This document shows, in pieces, positions 41,602-51,240 of a stretch of 64,000 bases of DNA (positions are counted from its first letter, which is position 1; each line of letters opens with the position of its first letter). A program made the position numbers and the translations under genes. Source of the stretch: an uncultured Chloroflexia bacterium (lineage in GTDB: Bacteria > Chloroflexota > Dehalococcoidia > DSTF01 > JALHUB01); contig CAVXOY010000015.1 of the NCBI GenBank assembly GCA_963763495.1, forward strand, positions 38,574 through 102,573, given 5' to 3'. The notes under the pieces are model-generated. The model had not been told where the DNA came from. It searched no databases and saw nothing but the letters and a program-made list of their open reading frames with translations.

Positions 41602-42489
41602 TTGGAAGCAGACAAGCTGCCGCCACGCGAAGATGACGTGTCCCCTGATGTCGGCGTTCCTGTTCCTCATGGATCGACGATCGCGGAGGACGGGCACTGG
41701 CGGGAGGCGCGAGAAGCCGCGTTGCGCAAAGTCGCCCCGGTGACAGCAACATCGAGGCAGCCTGTGGAATTGCGTGTGCTCAAGCGCTACTTGCTGGCAG
41801 CACTCGGTCTGGTCAGTATCGGCCTCTTGCTGGTAATCCTCGATGAGAGATCGCATGTCTCCCATCTAACTTCCGCCTCCGTTGTCTTGATGTTGGGCAT
41901 CATCGGCATCAGCTTTGTCGCCGTCTACCGGGCGCGCGAGGTAATGGAAGGGCTGATCCGAACGACAACCCCCACGGTCAGAGACACCGTGACCGGACTG
42001 CCGGACGAACAGTACTTCCGGCTGCGCCTGCGGGAGGAGTGCAAAAGGGTCGGCCGCTATGGGATCCCGGTATCTCTGGCGGTCATCGACGTCAATAATC
42101 TGGCATCGGTTAACGAGGCTTACGGCGATAGCTGCGGAGACGCTGTGCTGAGCCATATCGCCAGTGTGCTCGAGGCCACCAAGCGGGCATCGGACATCGC
42201 CGTCCGTCTAAGCGGAGACGAGTTCGCGCTGATCCTGCTGGAGTGCGGGAGAGATGACGCCGCTCAGTTCGTGCACCGACTGGAGCACTACGTGGCCCGC
42301 AAGCCGGCGACGGTGAGCGTCGAGACACAACCGATAACTCTGTGGATAGGCGTTACTATCGGCCTGGCGTCGGCCGCCAATGAAGACACGAGCCCGGATG
42401 AACTGCTGGCACGGGCCCGCCAGGACCTGCAGGCCGCCAAAGCCGAACGGGACGGGCGGCGGGAGCGCTGGACAAAGGCTTCCTCTTAG
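41602..42489 (+). CDS. Membrane-anchored GGDEF-domain protein (degenerate SGDEF, RxxD I-site)
   Basis: Two TM helices, then DTVTGL, VNEAYGDSCGDAVL and RASDIAVRLSGDEFALIL. Confidence 0.88.
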   Translation: MEADKLPPREDDVSPDVGVPVPHGSTIAEDGHWREAREAALRKVAPVTATSRQPVELRVLKRYLLAALGLVSIGLLLVILDERSHVSHLTSASVVLMLGIIGISFVAVYRAREVMEGLIRTTTPTVRDTVTGLPDEQYFRLRLREECKRVGRYGIPVSLAVIDVNNLASVNEAYGDSCGDAVLSHIASVLEATKRASDIAVRLSGDEFALILLECGRDDAAQFVHRLEHYVARKPATVSVETQPITLWIGVTIGLASAANEDTSPDELLARARQDLQAAKAERDGRRERWTKASS

Positions 42490-42624: not shown

Positions 42625-43530
42625 CTAATGACGGATGCGCGGGTCGAGGGCGTCGCGCAAGCCGTCGCTGAGGAAGGTGAAGCTAAGCATCACCACCGCG
42701 ATGGCAATCGTCGGCGCTAGCACAACGTGGGGATAGGCGAATATCGCCTGATAACCGTCCTGGACCATTGAGCCCCAACTCGGCAGCGGCGGCGTTACGC
42801 CGATGCCGATGAAGCTGAGAGACGCCTCAGCGAAGATCGCCTGCGGCACCCCAAATGCTACGGCGACGATGACCGGCCCCAGGCAGTTTGGCAGAAGATG
42901 ACGCAAAGCGATCCGCACGTCGTTGGCGCCAAGGGAACGCGCCGCTAGGGCAAAGTCATGCTCCTTGAGAGAGAGGAGCTGGGCTCGCACGAGGCGGGCG
43001 ACTGTCGTCCACTGCACGAGGGCTATGGCGAATATGATCATCAGCAGGCTGCCGCCAAAGACAGCCCGCAAGAGGATGATGAACAGAAGGTCGGGGAAGG
43101 CGTAGGCAACGTCTGTAAGGCGCATGAGGAGGTTGTCCAGCAGCCGGCCTCCCAGCGCCGCGACTGTCCCCACAGTGAGTCCCAAGGCAAGCACGATTAC
43201 CTGAGTCACCACTCCCACAGACAGGGATACGCGAGCCCCCTGGAGGAGACGGCTCAGGATGTCACGGCCGAGAGCATCCGTCCCCAACCAGTGAGCGCTG
43301 CTTGGCCCCTGATAGATAACATCGTAGTCCTGGTGCGCGTAGTGATGGGGAACAAAGAACGGCCCAATAAGCGCCGCCCCGGCGAAGAGAAGAATGACGA
43401 AAGCCCCCGCTGCCGCCAGTCTGTTGTTCCGGAGCAGACGCCGCCATAGATCCGTGCGCGGCGATTGCCGGTCGGTTACAGGCGCAAGGTCTTCTGTCTC
43501 GACCGCCGGGATAAGCGGTCCGCCTCTCAT
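42625..43530 (-). CDS. Peptide ABC transporter permease (OppC/DppC)
   Basis: HWLGTDALGRD, ARVSLSVG, ARSLGA..RIALRHLLPN, EASLSFIG and DGLRDALDPR. Confidence 0.93.
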   Translation of the reverse strand: MRGGPLIPAVETEDLAPVTDRQSPRTDLWRRLLRNNRLAAAGAFVILLFAGAALIGPFFVPHHYAHQDYDVIYQGPSSAHWLGTDALGRDILSRLLQGARVSLSVGVVTQVIVLALGLTVGTVAALGGRLLDNLLMRLTDVAYAFPDLLFIILLRAVFGGSLLMIIFAIALVQWTTVARLVRAQLLSLKEHDFALAARSLGANDVRIALRHLLPNCLGPVIVAVAFGVPQAIFAEASLSFIGIGVTPPLPSWGSMVQDGYQAIFAYPHVVLAPTIAIAVVMLSFTFLSDGLRDALDPRIRH

Positions 43531-43539
43531 GGCGTCCTC

Positions 43540-44457
43540 CTAGCCGTAGCGGATGCGGGGGTCAACCACCGCATAGAGCATATCAACGGCCAGATTCACA
43601 ACGGCGACGATGAAGGCATAGAAAATCGTCGCGCCCATGATCAGGCCGTAGTCTCGGGCGAACACGCCTTGGACAAAGAGCCGGCCGGTCCCCGGTATCG
43701 AAAAGAAGCTCTCGACGATGAACGATCCAGTCACCAGACTGACGGCTATCGGGCCGGCGACGGTGAGAATAGGAATGAGGGCGTTTTTCGTCGCGTGACG
43801 CAGGAGTACCACCTGCTCCCGCAAGCCCTTCGATCTCGCGGTGAGGATGTACTCCTGGCCCAGCACCTCAAGCATGCTGGCGCGGGTGATGCGAGCTATG
43901 TAGGCGACCGGTAGCGTAGCCAATGCTATGGCCGGCATGATCGCCTGCTTCGGGCTTCCCCAACCCCCAGTGGGCAGCCAGTGGAGGTGGACGGAGAAGA
44001 TAACTACCAGAAGCACTCCCAGGACGAATGTAGGTGTACTAGCGGCGCTGGCGGAGATGATTGAGCTTGCGCGATCGAGAACGCTGTTCTGCCGCAGAGC
44101 AGCAACCATACCCAAGGTGAGCCCCAGACACATGGCAACAGTAAAGGCCAGCAGTCCCAGAGTGGCTGTAGTCGAAAACCCACTCCGCAGGAGATCGGTA
44201 ACAGGGCGGCCCTGATTGGTGTAGGAGATGCCTAGGTCGCCGCGGAGAGCGTTCCCGATGAAGGTCAGGAATTGCTGCCACAGGGGCTGGTCCAGGCCGT
44301 ACTTGTGATTGAGATTGGCGACAGTTACCGGATCGAGAGGCTTATCACTGTCCCACGGTCCACCCGAGACAGCGTGCATGAGCAAGAAGGTGACAAGGGC
44401 GACGGCGAAGAGAACCGGCCCCATGTAGAGGATGCGTCTGAGAAGATAGCCAGCCAT
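43540..44457 (-). CDS. Peptide ABC transporter permease (OppB/DppB)
   Basis: KYGLDQPLWQQF, GDLGIS, EYILTARSKGL, HATKNA, VESFFSIPG.G and DPRIRY. Confidence 0.93.
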   Translation of the reverse strand: MAGYLLRRILYMGPVLFAVALVTFLLMHAVSGGPWDSDKPLDPVTVANLNHKYGLDQPLWQQFLTFIGNALRGDLGISYTNQGRPVTDLLRSGFSTTATLGLLAFTVAMCLGLTLGMVAALRQNSVLDRASSIISASAASTPTFVLGVLLVVIFSVHLHWLPTGGWGSPKQAIMPAIALATLPVAYIARITRASMLEVLGQEYILTARSKGLREQVVLLRHATKNALIPILTVAGPIAVSLVTGSFIVESFFSIPGTGRLFVQGVFARDYGLIMGATIFYAFIVAVVNLAVDMLYAVVDPRIRYG

Positions 44458-44481
44458 CGCTAGTCGTCACCATTGGAGGAG

Positions 44482-44516
44482 AGGCCGGCCCGGAGGCTAG
44501 TCCACCGGGCCGGCCT
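44482..44516 (-). other. GC-rich hairpin between oppA and oppB (mRNA-stabilising or attenuating)
   Basis: AGGCCGGCCCGG / CCGGGCCGGCCT 12-bp stem with no U tract. Confidence 0.55.
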
Positions 44517-44524
44517 AGAAGTGT

Positions 44525-46236
44525 CTAGTGTTGGACGATGTAGGTCTGCGTCAAGAACAGTTCACCGTCAAGCCCCGCATCCATCCCTGTCAGGATGAGG
44601 CTCTTGACGTACGGCTTGACAAGGCGGACCCGCTCGCGATAACTGACGAATATCGCCGCAGCGTCGCTTAATCAGCACTTGCTGGGCCTGACTCCACAGC
44701 GCCAAACGCTTTTCAGGGTCAGGTTCAGCGATTGCCTGCTGCACGAGAGTGTCGAACTCGGCATTGCTGTAGCCGGAGAGGTTGCTGCCACCGGTGCTCC
44801 CGAAGTTCTGGGGGAGCAGACTGTCGGGGTCAGGATAGTCAGCACCAAGCCCTATCGGTACGATCATGAACTGACCCTGCATGATCGTGGCAGAGAACGC
44901 CCGCGGCTCCAGTGGCTGGAGTTCTACTTTGACACCGAGGTTCTCCTCAAACTGTCCCTGCGCGAACTCAGCTCGCAGCCGGTTGGCGCCGACATCGGGG
45001 AATTCAATCGTCACGCTGGGCATTGCGTCGGCACTGTAGCCTGCCTCTTCAAGAAGCTGCTTCGCCCCTTCAGGATTGTAGGCCATCTCCTCGCCCAGGT
45101 CGGGGTCGTAGCCCGCCGTCCCGGGCGGAATCAGGCTGTAGGCAACCTCGCCGACGCCAAACTGCACCTTGTCGACGAAAGCCTCTCTGTCCATAGCCAT
45201 GGCGAACGCCTGGCGAACCTTCGGATCGTCGAACGGCGGCGCATTGACGTTGAACTCGTAGGCAAAGGTGCCCATGTCGACAGACCGCACTAGCTGCTGG
45301 CTCAGTTCGGAATCGCCTTCGGCAGCACCGATGTTGGGAGGCGGCACCATTACCACGTCAAGCTCGTTGTTCAGGTAGGCGGCGTAGGCGGCATTGGGGT
45401 CGCCGATCATCTTGAGTACAAGCTTCTGCAGCTTGGGTTGATCCCCGTACCAGTAAGGGTTGGGCGTAAGGGTCATGTGGTCGTTGTGGGCCCACTCGCT
45501 CAGCACAAAGGGGCCGCTGCTGACGAGCTTCCCCGGCTCTGTCCAGCTATCTCCGAGTCCTTCCACGATGTCCTGGCGGAGAGGGTACATAGGCCAAATA
45601 GCAGCGACATAGACGAATGTGTAGCGCGGCTGGACGAGAGTCACTTTGAGGGTGTAGTCATCCACCGCTTCGACTCCGACAGCGTCTCTGAGTTGAGAGA
45701 GCGTAGCTTCGTCGACCGGCTGAGGGTCTGCCGGGTTGCCCATCGCCATGGTGTATTCCGCGGCACCCTGAATGTCGAAGTACATTGGAGCATAGGGAGA
45801 GCCGGTCATGAGGATCGAGTAGGCGCTTCACGCTGTACTCGATATCGGCGGCGGTAATGGGCTGGCCGTCGCTCCATTTGGCGTCCTCACGCAGCTTGAA
45901 AGTGTAGGTGAGGCCGTCATCGGAGATGCCGCCGTTGGTGTGCGACGGAACCTCACTGGCGAGCGCCGGCACAAGGCTCAGATTCTGGTCAAAGCTGAGT
46001 AGGCCGCTGTAGAGCTGTCGAATGACGCCGATAGAGACGCCATCCATCGCGAGATTGGGGTCGATGGTCTCCGGTTCGTTGCCAAGGTTGAGCCGGAGTT
46101 CCTGGACAGGAGCCAGTTCCTCGGCGGAGGGCTTCGTCTTCCCGTCGTCACCGCAAGCGGATGAGAAGACTGCGGCCAAGATCGCAGCTGTCCCCGCCAC
46201 CAGCAACCAGAGCTTCGATTTCGATGGTATGTTCAT
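44525..46236 (-). CDS. Peptide ABC transporter substrate-binding lipoprotein (OppA family 5); frameshifts near 45810 and 44670
   Basis: Lipobox AVFSSAC, EPETIDP, DGLTYTFKLR..AKWSDG, SSGPFVL and DPKVRQAFAMAMDR. Confidence 0.9.
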
Positions 46237-46280: not shown

Positions 46281-46823
46281 TTACCGACTGGCAAGAGCGC
46301 TATCGGCCGTCGAAGGTGCCAAAAGCGCTCCCAACGCTTTCTCTGCCCGGTGGCGACCAACGCTGGCAGGCGCGACCCAGTGCTGGATCTGCAGGCCGTT
46401 TTCGAGGGCCAACAGCAAATCGGCTGTTATTCCCGGAGCAGCCGCCACGCCTCTTATCTTTCCTGCGATCTCCCGCAGTGCCTCGCGGCGAGCCGCATAG
46501 TACTCGGACAAACGCTCCCTGATTAGCTGTTTGCGGCCGGCTTGTTCCCAGAGCTCCATCAGGAGGCCGCCCCAGCCTTCACTACGAATGGTTCCATTCC
46601 CGTGGCTGCTACCCACCGTCTCTTCGACCACTTGGAGAAGCAACGACTCTTTGCCGCGAAAGTGGAAATAGAAGCCCCCTTTGGAGTAGCCGGCCACCCG
46701 ACAAATATCATCCACGCTGGCGCCCTCGAACCCCTTGCGGGTAAGGACCTGCAGCGCCGCCTTTAGCAGCTTTGTTCGGCCCTCCTCATGCATCCGACGT
46801 TTGGAGACACGTTGGGTTACCAT
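46281..46823 (-). CDS. TetR/AcrR-family regulator
   Basis: LLKAALQVLTRKGFEGASVDDICRVAGYSKGGFYFHF HTH. Confidence 0.92.
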   Translation of the reverse strand: MVTQRVSKRRMHEEGRTKLLKAALQVLTRKGFEGASVDDICRVAGYSKGGFYFHFRGKESLLLQVVEETVGSSHGNGTIRSEGWGGLLMELWEQAGRKQLIRERLSEYYAARREALREIAGKIRGVAAAPGITADLLLALENGLQIQHWVAPASVGRHRAEKALGALLAPSTADSALASR

Positions 46824-46963: not shown

Positions 46964-46991
46964 TTGACACAGGCTGATTTGATGCGATAAT
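46964..46991 (+). promoter_or_regulatory. Putative sigma-70-type promoter of the small W4 ORF
   Basis: TTGACA (46964-46969), 16 nt, GATAAT (46986-46991), with TGn. Confidence 0.45.
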
Positions 46992-47085
46992 ACATACCGA
47001 CGGGTCGGTATCTCAGCGAGGCAAGCAGAGAGGAACACCAATCCCTGACCCTGACCCCGAATCGGATATTGCATGGAGGCGAAGC

Positions 47086-47184
47086 ATGAAGAAACTGCTG
47101 GCTATTGCACCGGCTGCCCTGGTTGTAGCGGCTCTGGCCGCTACCCAGGCCCTACCACTCCTCAGAATCTGGTGGTGGTGGTAG
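47086..47184 (+). CDS. Small 32-aa peptide MKKLLAIAPAALVVAALAATQALPLLRIWWWW (not in the ORF track)
   Basis: GGAGG RBS at 47075-47079, 6 nt before ATG; signal-peptide-like N-terminus; four consecutive TGG codons then TAG. Confidence 0.65.
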   Translation: MKKLLAIAPAALVVAALAATQALPLLRIWWWW

Positions 47185-47461
47185 GAGCAAGTCACAATAG
47201 GAGATCCAGTGTCTACCCGCTGTCCAGGGGTCTCTGTTGCTTCGGTGAGAGAGACCTCATGGTGGCGGGCAAGAGCGAAGATACCGGCTCGTCAAGACGT
47301 CCCACCAAGTAGCTAGCGTCGACCCGCTCGACGGTGGTTACATTCGGGGACGTTTCGTCTCCTCTCTGCTCTGCCTCGTTGCCCTTACTTGGGCATCATG
47401 CCGACATCAATCGCCGTAGTGGCATACCGTTTGAGACCGGGCTGGTCGATTTAGCCCTAAC

Positions 47462-48955
47462 CTATGCCGCTACTCTCTCCTCCAGGCCTTCCGCCCAGCC
47501 ACCTACGCACTCCAAGAATGCCTCCACCACCTGAGGATCAAACTGAATACCGTTGTTGTTTATGATCTCATCACGCGCCTGCTGCCAGTCGAGGGCGCGC
47601 CGGTAAGGCCGGTTAGAGGTCATCGCATCGAAGGCGTCAGCGACGGCGAATACGCGAGAACCGAGAGGTATCTCCTTGCCCTTAAGCCCTAGGGGGTAAC
47701 CCTTCCCGTCATACCGTTCGTGGTGAGAGTAGACGATGTCGGCGGCTTTCTCCAAGAACTTGACGTCCTTCAGCATCTCATAGCCGATGGCGGGGTGCTT
47801 CCGCATCTCCTGCCATTCTTCAGCGGTTAGAGGTCCCGCTTTGTTCAGGATGGAGTCGGCAACGCCGATCTTGCCAACGTCGTGTAGCAGCGAGGCCCGC
47901 TCGATGTCCAGCCATTCGTCGCTACCATCCTTTATCCCAAGGCGAAGCGCCATGTCCATTGTGTAGACGGAGACGCGGCTGGAGTGACCGCCGGTTTCGC
48001 TATCCCGGGCATCGAGCGCGGCAGCGAGTGCCTCCAAGGTAGCATCATACGTTTCCTTCAAACGTGAGGTCATGGCGAGGATCTCGCGGTTAGCTCGTTC
48101 TAGCTGATCGTTCTTCCTCTTCAAGACAGCGACATTGCGGGCCGTCTTGTCCACGTACTGCTTGATCGCGAGGCGCATCATGAAAGGCGGGGCCACGAAC
48201 GCCAGTAGGCCGGTCGCGCCCAGCGCCCGATAGGAAAGAGCACAGGCCAAACCGAGCAATCCGAAGACCATGTAATGGGGGAAGAGCCACTGGAACTTCT
48301 CCTGCCAAATGGCCCAAGGCCTCTGTCGCGTGGCCAAGCTGGCGACACCGGTCACCAAGAAGCTGCTGACGCCGTAGCTGACGGTCGCCGCGACGAGAGA
48401 AGCGACGACCACCTGCGGCGACACCTTGATGGCGTTGTTATCGATCAGTCCCCAAAGCACAGCAGCGGCAAGGCCATCGGCGAGGATGGCGCTGCCGACG
48501 TTGAACAGGAAGCGGTAGGAAATGACGTTTCGGGGCAAATGTAAGCTGAGGGCGGTGATCGGAGCAGCAACAACCACGCCCGATGGCCCGTAGAGAACGG
48601 CGATGGCAAAGAGGCAGATGAAACTGACGGAGACTTTGCTGTCGCTGTAGACAAGTATGCTCAGGCGATCAGCGATGGCAGCAAGCGTCGTCAGCAGGAG
48701 CAAGCCGACAAGACCAGAGTGAGGGAGGCGGGGCGCGTAGACTAGCACCACCGCCATTCCCGCCAGAAATGCCGTGACGGACAGCAGCGAGGCCTGCCAG
48801 GGTAATGTGGGCGGCGCCATTCCCTCAGCGCGAGGCTCGCGCTCAGGCATGTGCGTACCTGCGCCTATGTCAGGGCGCACGGCGACGGACAGCGGTCGTT
48901 CAATACTGAGGCCGTTGTGGTTTTCGATCGGCTCTGCCCTGTCCTGCATAGGCAT
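47462..48955 (-). CDS. HD-GYP c-di-GMP phosphodiesterase with multi-TM (MASE-like) sensor domain
   Basis: About 7-8 TM segments, a coiled coil, ALDARD, LLHDVGK, HPAIG, HHERYDGKGYPLGLKG and ADAFDAMTSNRPYR. Confidence 0.93.
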   Translation of the reverse strand: MPMQDRAEPIENHNGLSIERPLSVAVRPDIGAGTHMPEREPRAEGMAPPTLPWQASLLSVTAFLAGMAVVLVYAPRLPHSGLVGLLLLTTLAAIADRLSILVYSDSKVSVSFICLFAIAVLYGPSGVVVAAPITALSLHLPRNVISYRFLFNVGSAILADGLAAAVLWGLIDNNAIKVSPQVVVASLVAATVSYGVSSFLVTGVASLATRQRPWAIWQEKFQWLFPHYMVFGLLGLACALSYRALGATGLLAFVAPPFMMRLAIKQYVDKTARNVAVLKRKNDQLERANREILAMTSRLKETYDATLEALAAALDARDSETGGHSSRVSVYTMDMALRLGIKDGSDEWLDIERASLLHDVGKIGVADSILNKAGPLTAEEWQEMRKHPAIGYEMLKDVKFLEKAADIVYSHHERYDGKGYPLGLKGKEIPLGSRVFAVADAFDAMTSNRPYRRALDWQQARDEIINNNGIQFDPQVVEAFLECVGGWAEGLEERVAA

Positions 48956-49090
48956 TTCCGGTGCCGCTCAGTTACTTCTTCGGGCTGACGTATTCACCTT
49001 TAGTGCAACATTCGGCGCCCGCCGATAGGCATGCGCGTCGAACGGAACATCCTAACGTCATCTCAACTGCGAACTCCGCTCTCAGGGGTA

Positions 49091-49118
49091 TTATCGGCAG
49101 ATGCCGGAGGTCAAGTAG
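49091..49118 (-). promoter_or_regulatory. Putative sigma-28-type promoter of the HD-GYP gene
   Basis: Exact GCCGATAA -10 at 49098-49091; weak -35 (CTACT) 15 nt upstream. Confidence 0.4.
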
Positions 49119-49190: not shown

Positions 49191-49916
49191 CTAGGCGGCC
49201 TCTTCAAGCTGCGGTTGAAGCTCTCGGCGGAGCAGGCAGAGGATCCGCTTGTGGAGCTGGCAGACTCGCGACTCGGAGAGTCCGAGAAGCTCGCCGATCT
49301 CATGAAACGGCCGTGACTCCCCATAGCGCAGTTGAATGATCGCCTTGTCCCGCTCGCTAAGAGATGAGACAGCGTCGACCAAGAAACCGAGGGCTACCTT
49401 GTGTTCGGTGGCCTGGGCGGGGTCTGTCAGGGCATCCTCATCGGCCAGATCCCAGCCGTAGTTGCCACCGTGACTGGGCCGGCACTCTAGAGAATACTCA
49501 AGGGATACGAGCCGGGAGTTGGTGCGCCACTTGAGCTGCTGCAGCCGGGCAGAGCTGATACCCATCCGAAAAGCGATCTCTTTGTGGGTAGGCCAGCGGC
49601 CGAGCTGGACAGCCAGCTCCTGTGAGGCCTGTTCGATCTCCTTTGCGCTTCGCCGCAGTGAGCGAGAGAGCGGGTCCTGCTTGCGCACGGCATCGAGTAT
49701 GGAGCCCCGAATGCGGCGAATGGCGAAGCTGGCAAAAGTCGTGCCCCGATCAGGGTCGTAGGCATCGACCGCCTGGATCAGTCCTTCCATACCGTAGCCA
49801 ATCGCGTCGTCCTTTTCCACGCCGGCGGCACCACCGCCATCAGCGGACATGCGGTTGACCACGAAAGCTACCAGCGGTAGATGCTTGGTTATCAATTGTT
49901 CTCGGTTCTTTGCCAT
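49191..49916 (-). CDS. RNA polymerase sigma factor, FliA/WhiG (sigma-28) family
   Basis: LITKHLPLV, GLIQAVDAYDPDRG..F..FA..RIRGSILDAVR, LVSLE, and region 4 EIGELLGLSESRVCQLH. Confidence 0.92.
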   Translation of the reverse strand: MAKNREQLITKHLPLVAFVVNRMSADGGGAAGVEKDDAIGYGMEGLIQAVDAYDPDRGTTFASFAIRRIRGSILDAVRKQDPLSRSLRRSAKEIEQASQELAVQLGRWPTHKEIAFRMGISSARLQQLKWRTNSRLVSLEYSLECRPSHGGNYGWDLADEDALTDPAQATEHKVALGFLVDAVSSLSERDKAIIQLRYGESRPFHEIGELLGLSESRVCQLHKRILCLLRRELQPQLEEAA

Positions 49917-49955
49917 GTTATGCCCCCCAGGGTTGGCGAACACTCGCCGGAGTAC

Positions 49956-50047: not shown

Positions 50048-50142
50048 GCCTTCGGTAGCCCAGCAACCCTATCCTTCCACGGAAGGACTATAGGTCGGAG
50101 GCTTTGCGTCCCCCTCTTTCGAAGGGTTTGCCTTTGTCGGTG
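50048..50142 (-). ncRNA. c-di-GMP-I (GEMM) riboswitch aptamer
   Basis: Minus strand AAGGCAAACCCTTC-GAAA-GAGGGGGACGCAAAGCCTCCGACCTA...ATAGGGTTGCTGGGCTACCGAA matches the class I consensus (GGCAAAC, GAAA tetraloop, GGACGCAAAGCC, ACCGA). Confidence 0.92.
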
Positions 50143-50562
50143 CCCGTCTTTACTGGTTAAGGTACTCACCGGCACCCTGGCCGGTGGGTGAACCCAACTG
50201 GATCACCAAAGCAATAACGAGGAAATGCGAAGAACATATCAGCGCCCGGCAAAGATCTTCAGAACAATTTGCGGAGCCTGGGCAAGTGCTATCACAAACA
50301 CAAAGGGGTGTTGGTTCCTACTTGGCGATAAGCGGAGGTATCTGCTATTCTTTGGCAGCGGAGGTGGGGGCTTGACGCTTTGGCTAGGATTGCAGGGCTA
50401 GCTCCAGTTGTCTGACAGTCCCCTTGCACAGAGCCGCAGTTGTCCATACCTCGGCGGCGGGCCAACCGCGCGTGCTACTTGAACCGTCGGGCAGTCGGAA
50501 AACCCTGAGAGAGGGCTGGCGCAGCGCCTTTTCCGGCCGACAATTACTTGGAGTATCTATCG

Positions 50563-51240
50563 TTGAACAGAACGATTCCCGCAAAGCGCCAGCAGAAGGA
50601 GCAGACACGAGCTCGCCTAGTGGAGGCCGCTCTCCGTGTCTTTGCCCTTCAGGGATACGACCACGCCACAGTAGATGAGATATCTCTGGCAGCCGGACAC
50701 TCTAAGGGCGCCTACTACTTCCATTTCGATTCCAAAGAGGGGATATTCCTAGAACTGCTGTCGACCTGGACAGCGGAGCAGACGCGACGGCTGCACACAT
50801 TTGAGGATGCCTCGGTCCCTCCGGCCATTGCCCTGCTCGAAACCCTTCAGTCTCTTCTTCGGTACGACGATAGGGACCCCCACTGGCTGTCGTTACTCCC
50901 CGAGTTCTGGGCTCAGGGTCACCGAAACGACAAGGTTCACCAGTTGCTGCAAAAAGCCTATGATCAATGGCTGAAGCTTCTCACAGACGCGTTCGAGAAG
51001 GCTGAGTCGGCCCGCCTTATCTCCTTGGCCGTACGTCCGGAGGCGGCGGCCAGTCTCGTCCTCGCCCTGCACGATGGCCTGGTAGTGCACCGTCGCCTGC
51101 GCCTGGCGGCCAACAGACCACCAGCTTTGCCCCAGACGCTCGGCGTCCTCATCTCTATGCTGACCACGTCAGCGGAACAGCGGCCAACCACGGAGATTTC
51201 TCCGCCGGTGGCACGGCGCACAGTCAGACGCACGCACTAG
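50563..51240 (+). CDS. TetR/AcrR-family regulator
   Basis: TRARLVEAALRVFALQGYDHATVDEISLAAGHSKGAYYFHF; TTG 50563 follows GGAG (the track start 50548 is also possible). Confidence 0.92.
   Translation: MNRTIPAKRQQKEQTRARLVEAALRVFALQGYDHATVDEISLAAGHSKGAYYFHFDSKEGIFLELLSTWTAEQTRRLHTFEDASVPPAIALLETLQSLLRYDDRDPHWLSLLPEFWAQGHRNDKVHQLLQKAYDQWLKLLTDAFEKAESARLISLAVRPEAAASLVLALHDGLVVHRRLRLAANRPPALPQTLGVLISMLTTSAEQRPTTEISPPVARRTVRRTH

Follow-up and report, generated by a model that had tools for sequence, protein, structure and literature searches.

Tryptophan-tailed micro-open reading frames beside a TetR gene and a cyclic di-GMP module in uncultured Dehalococcoidia

A 64,000-nucleotide (nt) stretch of an uncultured Chloroflexia bacterium (contig CAVXOY010000015.1 of assembly GCA_963763495.1, positions 38,574 to 102,573 of the forward strand; referred to here as the window) carries a small open reading frame (sORF) of 32 codons that ends in four tryptophans. 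The sORF, MKKLLAIAPAALVVAALAATQALPLLRIWWWW followed by a stop codon, lies at 47086-47184 on the plus strand. Comparison with related loci indicates that it is a member of an undescribed family of stand-alone micro-ORFs in uncultured Dehalococcoidia. With a probability that we put at roughly 45%, hence somewhat below even odds, the family encodes a peptide signal gated by a TetR-type repressor, the long forms of which would be exported and, where an Opp-type importer is linked, imported again.

A conserved family of Trp-tailed micro-ORFs

The window sORF begins with an ATG 6 nt after a GGAGG Shine-Dalgarno sequence (47075-47079, plus strand) that is kept in all related loci, and its four Trp codons (47170-47181) are directly followed by the TAG stop codon (47182-47184). 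Upstream lies a sigma-70-type promoter (46964-46991, plus strand), in which TTGACA (46964-46969) and a TG-extended -10 box, GATAAT (46986-46991, within TGcGATAAT), are separated by 16 nt. This promoter matches at 11 of 12 positions, compared to 0.5 such sites expected in shuffled sequences, and TTGACA and the -10 box are likewise kept in all related loci. A first-pass annotation, made from the letters of the window, had already called a 32-residue ORF ending in four tryptophans, with its own promoter and a GGAGG ribosome-binding site. All of this was confirmed: the translation is exact, and the identical peptide is encoded on an independent metagenome contig, L180, whose flanking proteins are 96 to 99% identical to those of the window. 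Since Trp makes up 1.07% of the residues in the long ORFs of the window, four consecutive Trp residues are very unlikely to have arisen by chance. More than 100 related loci hold an ORF at the equivalent place beside orthologous HD-GYP genes, a check that the first-pass annotation had itself named, and read from the independent assembly L180 the frame is not extended into a longer ORF. An assembly artifact was considered, as the metagenome-assembled genome (MAG) does contain split genes (a substrate-binding protein [SBP] gene and trpB), yet it was rejected because independent assemblies carry the same sORF. An overlapping Cys-rich frame of 79 residues (47073-47312) was also discarded, being not conserved and interrupted by stops in a relative from the same genus. 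The exact peptide is absent from a collection of 15 billion proteins, and the gene is thus unannotated, as had been supposed; two relatives of the peptide are present in that collection, solely as unnamed or "hypothetical protein" entries. We conclude from these comparisons that the sORF is a genuine, conserved, and translated small gene.

The similarity of the window DNA to its relatives spans exactly the region from the promoter to the stop codon and falls off beyond it. The common cassette consists of the TTGACA/-10 promoter, an invariant 18-bp palindrome at the transcription start with a TetR gene running in the opposite direction beside it, a strong Shine-Dalgarno sequence, and the sORF, which stands tail to tail with a membrane HD-GYP/FliA-WhiG operon bearing a c-di-GMP riboswitch. 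We surveyed 93 genomes of one uncultured Dehalococcoidia order, most of which encode full-length HD-GYP orthologues (89 have an HD-GYP match at an E value of ≤1e-40). The palindrome, with at most one mismatch, was found in 52 of the 56 genomes of families f1, f3, and f4 (17/18, 2/2, and 33/36, respectively), almost always once. It was found in 5 of the 37 genomes of families f2 and f5, every time with a mismatch, which corresponds to the chance level, and inspection of 16 HD-GYP downstream regions from these two families revealed no TetR gene, no palindrome, and no sORF. A scan of metagenomes for the palindrome returned 115 stretches, 72 of them with the promoter, and nearly all of these 72 hold a Shine-Dalgarno-linked sORF. 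The cassette occupies a syntenic chromosomal locus, with vertical inheritance over three families. It has no Rfam model, and a full-text literature search combining Dehalococcoidia, small ORF, cyclic di-GMP (c-di-GMP), HD-GYP, and TetR listed nothing on Dehalococcoidia or on such an sORF. Stand-alone bacterial genes of 6 to 34 codons are almost never annotated, and evidence of selection on them is rare; in the present case, such a gene can be followed through three families of an uncultured order, along with a promoter, an operator, a ribosome-binding site, and a terminator of its own. The cassette is moreover compact, with <700 bp including the repressor gene, and offers natural contrasts, occurring with and without a leader, with and without an Opp importer, and with an RNA that is either minimal or elaborately folded.

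The ORFs of the family have 6 to 34 codons, with Trp as the last residue or no more than two residues from the end. All members have one to four Trp codons among their last five codons, and many have a single one. Long forms are represented by the peptides of three other genera (MKKLLAIAPAALVMAAVAATQALPLLRITWRW, MKKLLSITSAALVVAAAAASQAPALLHIRWW, and MKKLAGIASAALVVAAVAATQTPVLLWISWWWR), by a 34-residue form in family f3 (MRRLAGMALAALLVAAVSVAYQAPIILGIRWGWW), and by a second large clade that reads MKKRLGLAIVALVALAIGAAQQAPALLFWWWG, in which the leader is conserved and the tail is hypervariable (FWWWG, VWWWG, FRAWG, FYKWG, IWHWG, and FWWT among others). In family f1, to which the window also belongs, genera g2 and g7 have ORFs of only 6 to 8 codons (MKKYHWF, MKKMHWW, MRKYHWY, and MKKHVWWW) and retain the promoter, the palindrome, the boxes of the 5' untranslated region (UTR), and the downstream RNA. 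The ORFs of family f4 also have 6 to 8 codons (MFRVSW, MYRVSW, MFRVMW, MFRINW, MFRIQW, MTFRVTW, MTFRITW, and MVQRATWG), and the f4 locus behind the HD-GYP gene comprises the same palindrome, a TTGACA/17 nt/TATAAA promoter, a 5' UTR of ∼50 to 100 nt, AAGGAGGA, and the ORF. One f4 genus, g29, has intermediate forms of 19 to 23 residues (MKKLLLAVVAVASVLGFRW). Generally, most members of the family (f4 as well as g2 and g7 of f1) have 6 to 9 residues and no hydrophobic segment, and a basic residue usually stands just before Trp in the core (FR[VI]xW, KxHW[WF], LLFWWWG, and RIWWWW). As judged from this comparison, the common essential part is the Trp-bearing stretch of the C-terminal five or six residues, and the MKK-plus-hydrophobic segment is an optional, lineage-specific, signal-peptide-like extension. 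The Trp-rich C terminus had been taken as the functional end in the first-pass annotation, and the Trp-bearing core common to all members bears this out. In the metagenome relatives L133, L156, and L162, the ORF ends with ...W TAG TGG TAG GAG; here, one TGG-to-TAG change has cut the Trp tail by two codons, which shows the drift of tail length.

The pattern of substitutions indicates that selection acts on the encoded amino acids. Among 43 distinct long forms, the ratio of nonsynonymous to synonymous polymorphism (pN/pS), the kind of check proposed beforehand, was 0.55 in frame, whereas shifting the frame gave 1.08 and 1.16. The entropy by codon position in the long forms was 0.71, 0.62, and 1.08, the third position being the most variable. 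In 26 distinct f4 loci, Arg is invariant although it is encoded by CGC, CGA, CGG, and CGT, and Trp is invariant as well; the residue after Arg is Val or Ile (Ala in two loci), encoded by seven codons, and the following residue is freely variable. Consistently, the basic second residue of the short f1 forms is encoded by AAG, AAA, AGA, or CGA, and their His by CAC or CAT.

The leader shows the same kind of constraint. It is ∼40% identical among the long forms of clades A and B, genus g5, family f3, and genus g29 of f4, all of which retain a basic-hydrophobic-small pattern; in the window, basic residues are followed by ∼16 hydrophobic residues and then by small residues. A basic N terminus and a hydrophobic core with small residues had been noticed before for the window peptide, and this pattern is under purifying selection across the divergent long forms. 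The full arrangement of basic N terminus, hydrophobic middle, and a C terminus as the active end fits the window peptide and about 45 long forms, the short forms having no leader. Cleavage was predicted by eye: the window peptide has MKK, a 16-residue hydrophobic region, and candidate sites after A19 or A22, and in clade B the predicted site was placed after A20 because a Pro at +1 blocks a later site.

The presumed operator, the Opp importer, and a proposed TetR-gated peptide signal

A perfect 18-bp palindrome, ATACCGACGGGTCGGTAT (46994-47011), which is presumably the operator of the adjacent TetR gene, lies over the predicted transcription start of the sORF. It starts 3 nt downstream of the -10 box and supplies, with its right arm, the 5' end of the RNA as well. 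The consensus of the palindrome is ATACCGACG[G/A]GTCGGTAT, with arms identical across the order, and it is found where the TetR gene adjoins the HD-GYP gene and missing where that TetR gene is missing. The TetR-family regulator gene itself (46281-46823, minus strand; Pfam TetR_N at 7.5e-15 plus TetR_C_6) is divergent from the sORF, and its position is kept in about 100 loci. The first-pass annotation mentions neither the palindrome nor the TetR link, the Opp link, or the structured RNA around the sORF.

Downstream of the TetR gene follow the genes of an Opp-type peptide importer (42625-46236, minus strand), namely, those for an SBP_bac_5 lipoprotein (assigned by Pfam, with OppA as its best NCBIfam match and a lipobox), OppB, and OppC. 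In clade A, TetR is the first gene of a TetR-SBP-OppB-OppC operon; f3 and L207 have this operon as well, and clade B has another Opp paralogue close by. Opp orthologues at ≥70% identity were found only in long-form lineages, and none of the roughly 45 short-form loci showed an Opp gene in the upstream stretch inspected, which measured 1 to 5 kb. A universal linkage to Opp was considered and rejected, as g5 and g29 of f4 do without it. The SBP gene of the window is split into overlapping frames at 45658-46236 and 44568-45809 (together 44568-46236, minus strand), and trpB of the same MAG is also split (G000:C21:82780-83929). Since the orthologues are intact in relatives, both splits are probably assembly indels rather than pseudogenes.

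In the reading that we favor, TetR would repress the sORF via the palindrome, and the peptide itself would be the product that matters, acting as a small signal. The long forms would leave the cell and be cut down to a Trp-rich peptide of about 8 to 13 residues, and where the TetR gene is cotranscribed with an Opp importer, as in the window, the trimmed peptide could be taken up again. Candidate C-terminal peptides are LPLLRIWWWW and TQALPLLRIWWWW for the window and MFRVSW, MKKYHWF, and QQAPALLFWWWG for relatives. Since the forms with 6 to 8 residues, having no signal sequence, would never leave the cell, a receptor common to the family should be cytoplasmic. TetR would be the prime candidate, which would create an autoinduction loop, and the adjoining c-di-GMP module would receive the output, either via the peptide or via transcription that runs convergently into the HD-GYP operon. 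In its minimal f4 form, the unit has the appearance of a simple hexa- or heptapeptide gene, with an open Shine-Dalgarno sequence and a terminator beyond the reach of the terminating ribosome. Should such a signal exist, peptide communication would extend to Chloroflexota and be tied to c-di-GMP, and TetR-type proteins would join the peptide receptors.

This picture departs from that of the first-pass annotation, which had proposed a secreted or membrane signaling peptide acting on the sensor domain of the HD-GYP protein. With most relatives having 6 to 9 residues and no hydrophobic segment, secretion or membrane insertion cannot be the core property of the family, nor can the outer face of the HD-GYP sensor be its common target; in this respect, the proposal needs revision. 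Its further suggestion that the Trp residues are modified found no support, as no modifying enzyme accompanies the gene.

Several points weigh against the favored signal. To our knowledge, there is no natural peptide-induced TetR, and we know of no clear precedent for a directly translated 6- to 7-mer as a ligand. A TetR acting as repressor and receptor at once would leave the loop without an obvious output beyond the peptide or the RNA. The correlation with Opp stems from only a few independent evolutionary events, and no Opp genes lie near the loci of the long-form genus g5 or of the 19- to 23-residue forms of g29. Finally, the elaborate and coevolving RNA of f1 and f3, with the stop codon in a helix, suggests an additional function of the RNA or of its translation.

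A more specific proposal, which we regard as doubtful, is that the Trp-terminated micropeptide, down to MFRVSW, is the natural inducer of the divergent TetR and that the lineages with a leader and Opp have made of this cell-autonomous switch a quorum-sensing circuit in Chloroflexota, wired to c-di-GMP turnover and FliA/WhiG. A TetR of this kind would be the first peptide-sensing receptor in its family, and few stand-alone bacterial genes would be as small as the six-codon form.

Parts of this arrangement resemble known systems. The Firmicutes pheromone cassettes ComS/XIP-ComR, SHP-Rgg, and PrgQ/iCF10-PrgX have, like the window, an ORF of 17 to 35 codons with a basic N terminus, a hydrophobic middle, and an active C terminus. 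Their peptide gene stands beside that of a cytoplasmic DNA-binding receptor, as the sORF stands beside the gene of its candidate receptor, TetR; their peptide is taken up by Opp, to which the Opp genes linked to part of the long-form loci would correspond, and they share with the sORF family the combination of a conserved leader and a hypervariable C-terminal tail. The ComS/XIP pheromones additionally have a C-terminal WW motif (in type II XIPs), enter through Opp, and bind a cytoplasmic regulator, which in turn drives a positive loop (PMC5131902). The sORF locus differs from these cassettes in that its adjacent regulator is a TetR_N plus TetR_C_6 protein and not an RRNPP/tetratricopeptide repeat (TPR) protein; the locus contains no TPR regulator. 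Furthermore, most of its homologues have 6 to 9 codons and no leader, no target operon follows, the host belongs to Chloroflexota, and the mRNA is large and structured in f1 and f3. As far as we know, some members of the family are far smaller than any known pheromone precursor.

The Streptomyces pairs ScbR/ScbA and ArpA/AfsA provide another likeness, with a TetR-family repressor divergent from the signal gene and a palindromic operator in the shared intergenic region. For both TetR proteins of the sORF locus, the best NCBIfam model is that of the ScbR autoregulator-receptor family, below the cutoff. For the sORF-adjacent TetR, this sub-threshold similarity is confined to the DNA-binding domain. 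The second TetR-family gene (50548-51240, plus strand), which lies beyond the sigma factor gene and is conserved in most loci, aligns to the same model over its full length (80 bits, compared to a cutoff of 150). Unlike in ScbR/ScbA, the signal would be a gene-encoded peptide, and there is no butyrolactone synthase. The Tet repressor can be induced by an artificial oligopeptide, Tip, and an aromatic residue before residue 1 improved this induction (PMC1919500). Tip, in contrast to the sORF peptide, is a product of laboratory selection and acts when fused to a carrier protein. We know of no natural counterpart of Tip.

The structured transcript and competing explanations

The transcript has a length of 300 to 450 nt in f1 and f3 and of ∼170 to 200 nt in f4. 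In the window, it is predicted to be closed by a helix, P1, whose purine-rich 5' strand (CAGCGAGGCAAGCAGAGAGGA, 47014-47034, plus strand) pairs with a pyrimidine-rich 3' strand (TCCTCTCTGCTCTGCCTCGTTG, 47360-47381, plus strand) at -40.7 kcal/mol. Six clades retain P1, with strands that differ considerably in sequence, one example being GCCCUAGGCAAAGCGAACGAACC with GGUUCGUUCGUUUGUCCUGGGGC. P1 boxes from one and the same clade pair at -35 to -41 kcal/mol in five of these clades, compared to -20 to -34 kcal/mol for cross-clade boxes; in clade B, P1 is short and this difference is negligible. In the f1 clade of short forms (the short clade), P1 is 98.9% paired and the tested structure is 94% paired, compared to about 53% in slid controls. 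Here 16 pairs have changed on both sides, which was reached in 0 of 500 shuffles, and covariation extends through the whole of two internal hairpins. In the window RNA, the minimum-free-energy fold shows a stable internal hairpin, GGUCUCU...UUCG...AGAGACC (47228-47257, plus strand), within the structured 3' domain. This agrees with the first of two hairpins that had been placed after the sORF (47229-47251); the second (47346-47362) overlaps the 3' strand of P1 instead.

A mid box, GATACCGGCTCGTC (47280-47293, plus strand), identified by eye, is complementary to the 5' end of the RNA, GACGGGUCGGUAUC, and is conserved in clades A and B and in the short clade; it could be either one strand of a long-range helix in the RNA or, at the DNA level, a second half-operator. 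At this position in the window, and likewise in L241-L297, an extra operator half-site, (U)ACCG(A/G)C, complements the right arm of the palindrome. The half-site lies far downstream in the f1 RNAs and 3 to 6 nt after the palindrome in f4 (L241-L297), and its A-to-G changes preserve G.U pairing.

A terminal hairpin, GGCATA...TATGCC (47421-47468), read from the sequence over the HD-GYP stop codon, is a candidate for the shared end of both convergent transcripts. The terminator scan of the window found no canonical U-tract terminator there; clade B and f4 have clear intrinsic terminators at the equivalent place, which in f4 take the form of a covarying hairpin ∼20 to 45 nt after the stop codon. 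The f4 consensus fold contains only a 5' hairpin and this terminator, and no conserved pairing touches the ORF. The Trp and stop codons of the window are folded back on the Leu/Pro codons before them. The stop codon region of the short clade, UAG-GAGGG, can pair with a CCCUCCU hairpin loop, which could alternatively pair with the sORF's own Shine-Dalgarno sequence; this candidate pseudoknot (UAGGAGGG with the CCCUCCU loop) is conserved, without covariation. No relevant Rfam match was found at E values up to 10 in this region of the window or up to 1 in five relatives, and the sole match in the window that reaches the gathering score is a c-di-GMP riboswitch (50050-50141).

Such an RNA invites the explanation that the sORF encodes a leader or arrest peptide within a riboregulator. 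The ribosome would stall on the Trp codons when charged tRNA-Trp is scarce, or arrest at the stop codon in dependence on a small molecule, and would thereby remodel the RNA, with a change in its stability or activity or with antisense read-through beyond the terminal hairpin into the HD-GYP/sigma operon. We consider this rather unlikely, though the main rival of the favored reading; such a nascent-peptide sensor would represent a novel type of translation-gated RNA, one without a downstream gene to regulate. It would fit the constant position of Trp at or beside the last sense codon, followed by TAA or TAG, with TGA found once (L128) among ∼100 distinct sORFs, compared to its place as the commonest stop in the long ORFs of the window (27/60). 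Conservation of a 6- to 7-residue peptide at the amino acid level is also known from arrest peptides, and the f1 ORF does lie inside a structured RNA with a coevolving closing helix. The alternative partners of CCCUCCU in the short clade, the folding of the Trp and stop codons onto Leu/Pro codons in the window, and the invariant convergence with HD-GYP, at 25 to 100 nt between the ends, point the same way. What this explanation leaves unaccounted for is the purifying selection on a 25-residue hydrophobic N-terminal extension. Spacing and downstream structure vary between families, whereas the peptide core does not, and many members offer a single Trp codon for stalling. No locus has a same-strand gene downstream, and the f4 terminator lies outside the footprint of the terminating ribosome, with no antiterminator found. 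Because the organisms encode trpB and are thus not obvious Trp auxotrophs, Trp auxotrophy is no argument for an attenuator either. A classical Trp attenuator, as in trpL or TnaC, has a similarly short ORF with Trp codons near its end and a structured, leader-like RNA; it was rejected for lack of a downstream same-strand gene in more than 100 loci. The sORF further differs from these leaders in being a discrete transcript with its own repressor-type operator. Mutually exclusive terminator and antiterminator pairings across the ORF were not found in the f4 consensus fold, and in f1 the CCCUCCU loop has alternative partners, which show no covariation. The first-pass annotation had already ranked a Trp-sensing leader lower, given that no same-strand gene follows, and the minimal relatives, in which no terminator/antiterminator alternative was found, strengthen that judgment.

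Closest to the first-pass annotation is a small membrane protein, a single helix with KK inside and the Trp tail at the outer interface, that would bind the membrane domain of the HD-GYP or the GGDEF protein and so tune c-di-GMP turnover. A basic N terminus followed by 16 hydrophobic residues and an aromatic tail is what small membrane proteins typically show, the HD-GYP protein with its roughly six predicted helices is the invariant neighbor, and a membrane GGDEF protein belongs to the conserved neighborhood as well. This explanation nevertheless appears improbable, given that the majority forms of f4 and of g2 and g7 in f1, at 6 to 9 residues, keep the promoter, operator, synteny, and HD-GYP architecture; that long and short forms would place the Trp core on different sides of the membrane; and that a 16-residue stretch with a Pro is short for a stable span. 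The same minimal forms, polar or aromatic and still embedded in the whole cassette, make it very improbable that the locus encodes a type I toxin, that is, a membrane-damaging peptide on an mRNA kept inert by 5'-3' pairing, as in hok and aapA1, and controlled by an antisense RNA. A 32-residue hydrophobic peptide behind a long 5' UTR, a strong coevolving 5'-3' closing helix, and a single copy that escaped annotation would suit such a toxin, and RNAIII/delta-hemolysin, hok, and aapA1 are indeed structured RNAs of several hundred nucleotides with paired ends and a very small ORF. They differ from the family, whose ORF shrinks to 6 codons and whose structure is absent in f4. Regarding an antisense partner, the promoter scan gave one minus-strand candidate, which faces the TetR gene, and none antisense within the transcribed region. 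A repressor-type operator on the promoter is unlike the usual type I arrangement, and the chromosomal, syntenic, and vertically inherited locus also speaks against a toxin. Equally remote is a purely noncoding structured RNA with an incidental ORF, acting as a regulatory RNA or, through its 5' end and mid box, as a decoy for TetR. The pairing and the 16 two-sided changes in f1 would be in line with it, as would the complementarity of the mid box to the operator-derived 5' end, and a synthetic RNA aptamer is reported to mimic tet operator DNA (PMC7102968). It is opposed by the clear coding signature, by the conserved positions of start, Shine-Dalgarno sequence, and stop, by the f4 RNAs, which are nearly devoid of conserved structure except for the terminator and still keep the ORF, and by the absence of an Rfam match.

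The c-di-GMP neighborhood

The convergent neighbor of the sORF encodes a membrane-bound HD-GYP phosphodiesterase (47462-48955, minus strand; Pfam HD_5 at 3.5e-37), in which, according to the hydropathy profile, roughly six hydrophobic helices precede the HD_5 domain. The convergence noted by the first-pass annotation in the window recurs in every locus examined, with 25 to 100 nt between the ends of the two genes. A FliA/WhiG-type sigma factor gene (49191-49943, minus strand) precedes the HD-GYP gene in its operon, in the same orientation.

The HD-GYP upstream region (49088-49118, minus strand) contains CTTGAC and CGATAATAC separated by 13 nt, the same pair of words as in the sORF promoter. 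That both upstream regions share this motif, as had been pointed out previously, is correct, but a shared promoter type does not follow, the spacing being 16 nt at the sORF and 13 nt at the HD-GYP gene. The former is sigma-70-like and the latter fits a sigma-28-type promoter (GCCGATAA); given the different spacing, the two promoters are probably read by different sigma factors.

The surrounding island is as a whole related to c-di-GMP. The sigma factor gene is directly preceded by a c-di-GMP-I-GGC riboswitch (50050-50141, minus strand), which scored 66.6 bits, compared to 59 for the gathering score. Beyond the TetR gene, as seen from the sORF, the plus strand encodes a GGDEF protein (41602-42489) that has a hydrophobic N terminus and a degenerate motif (GDDEF/ADDEF). 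This gene occupies the corresponding place in most f1 loci inspected (relatives L121, L129, L153, and L220), and in clade A the Opp genes stand between it and the TetR gene.

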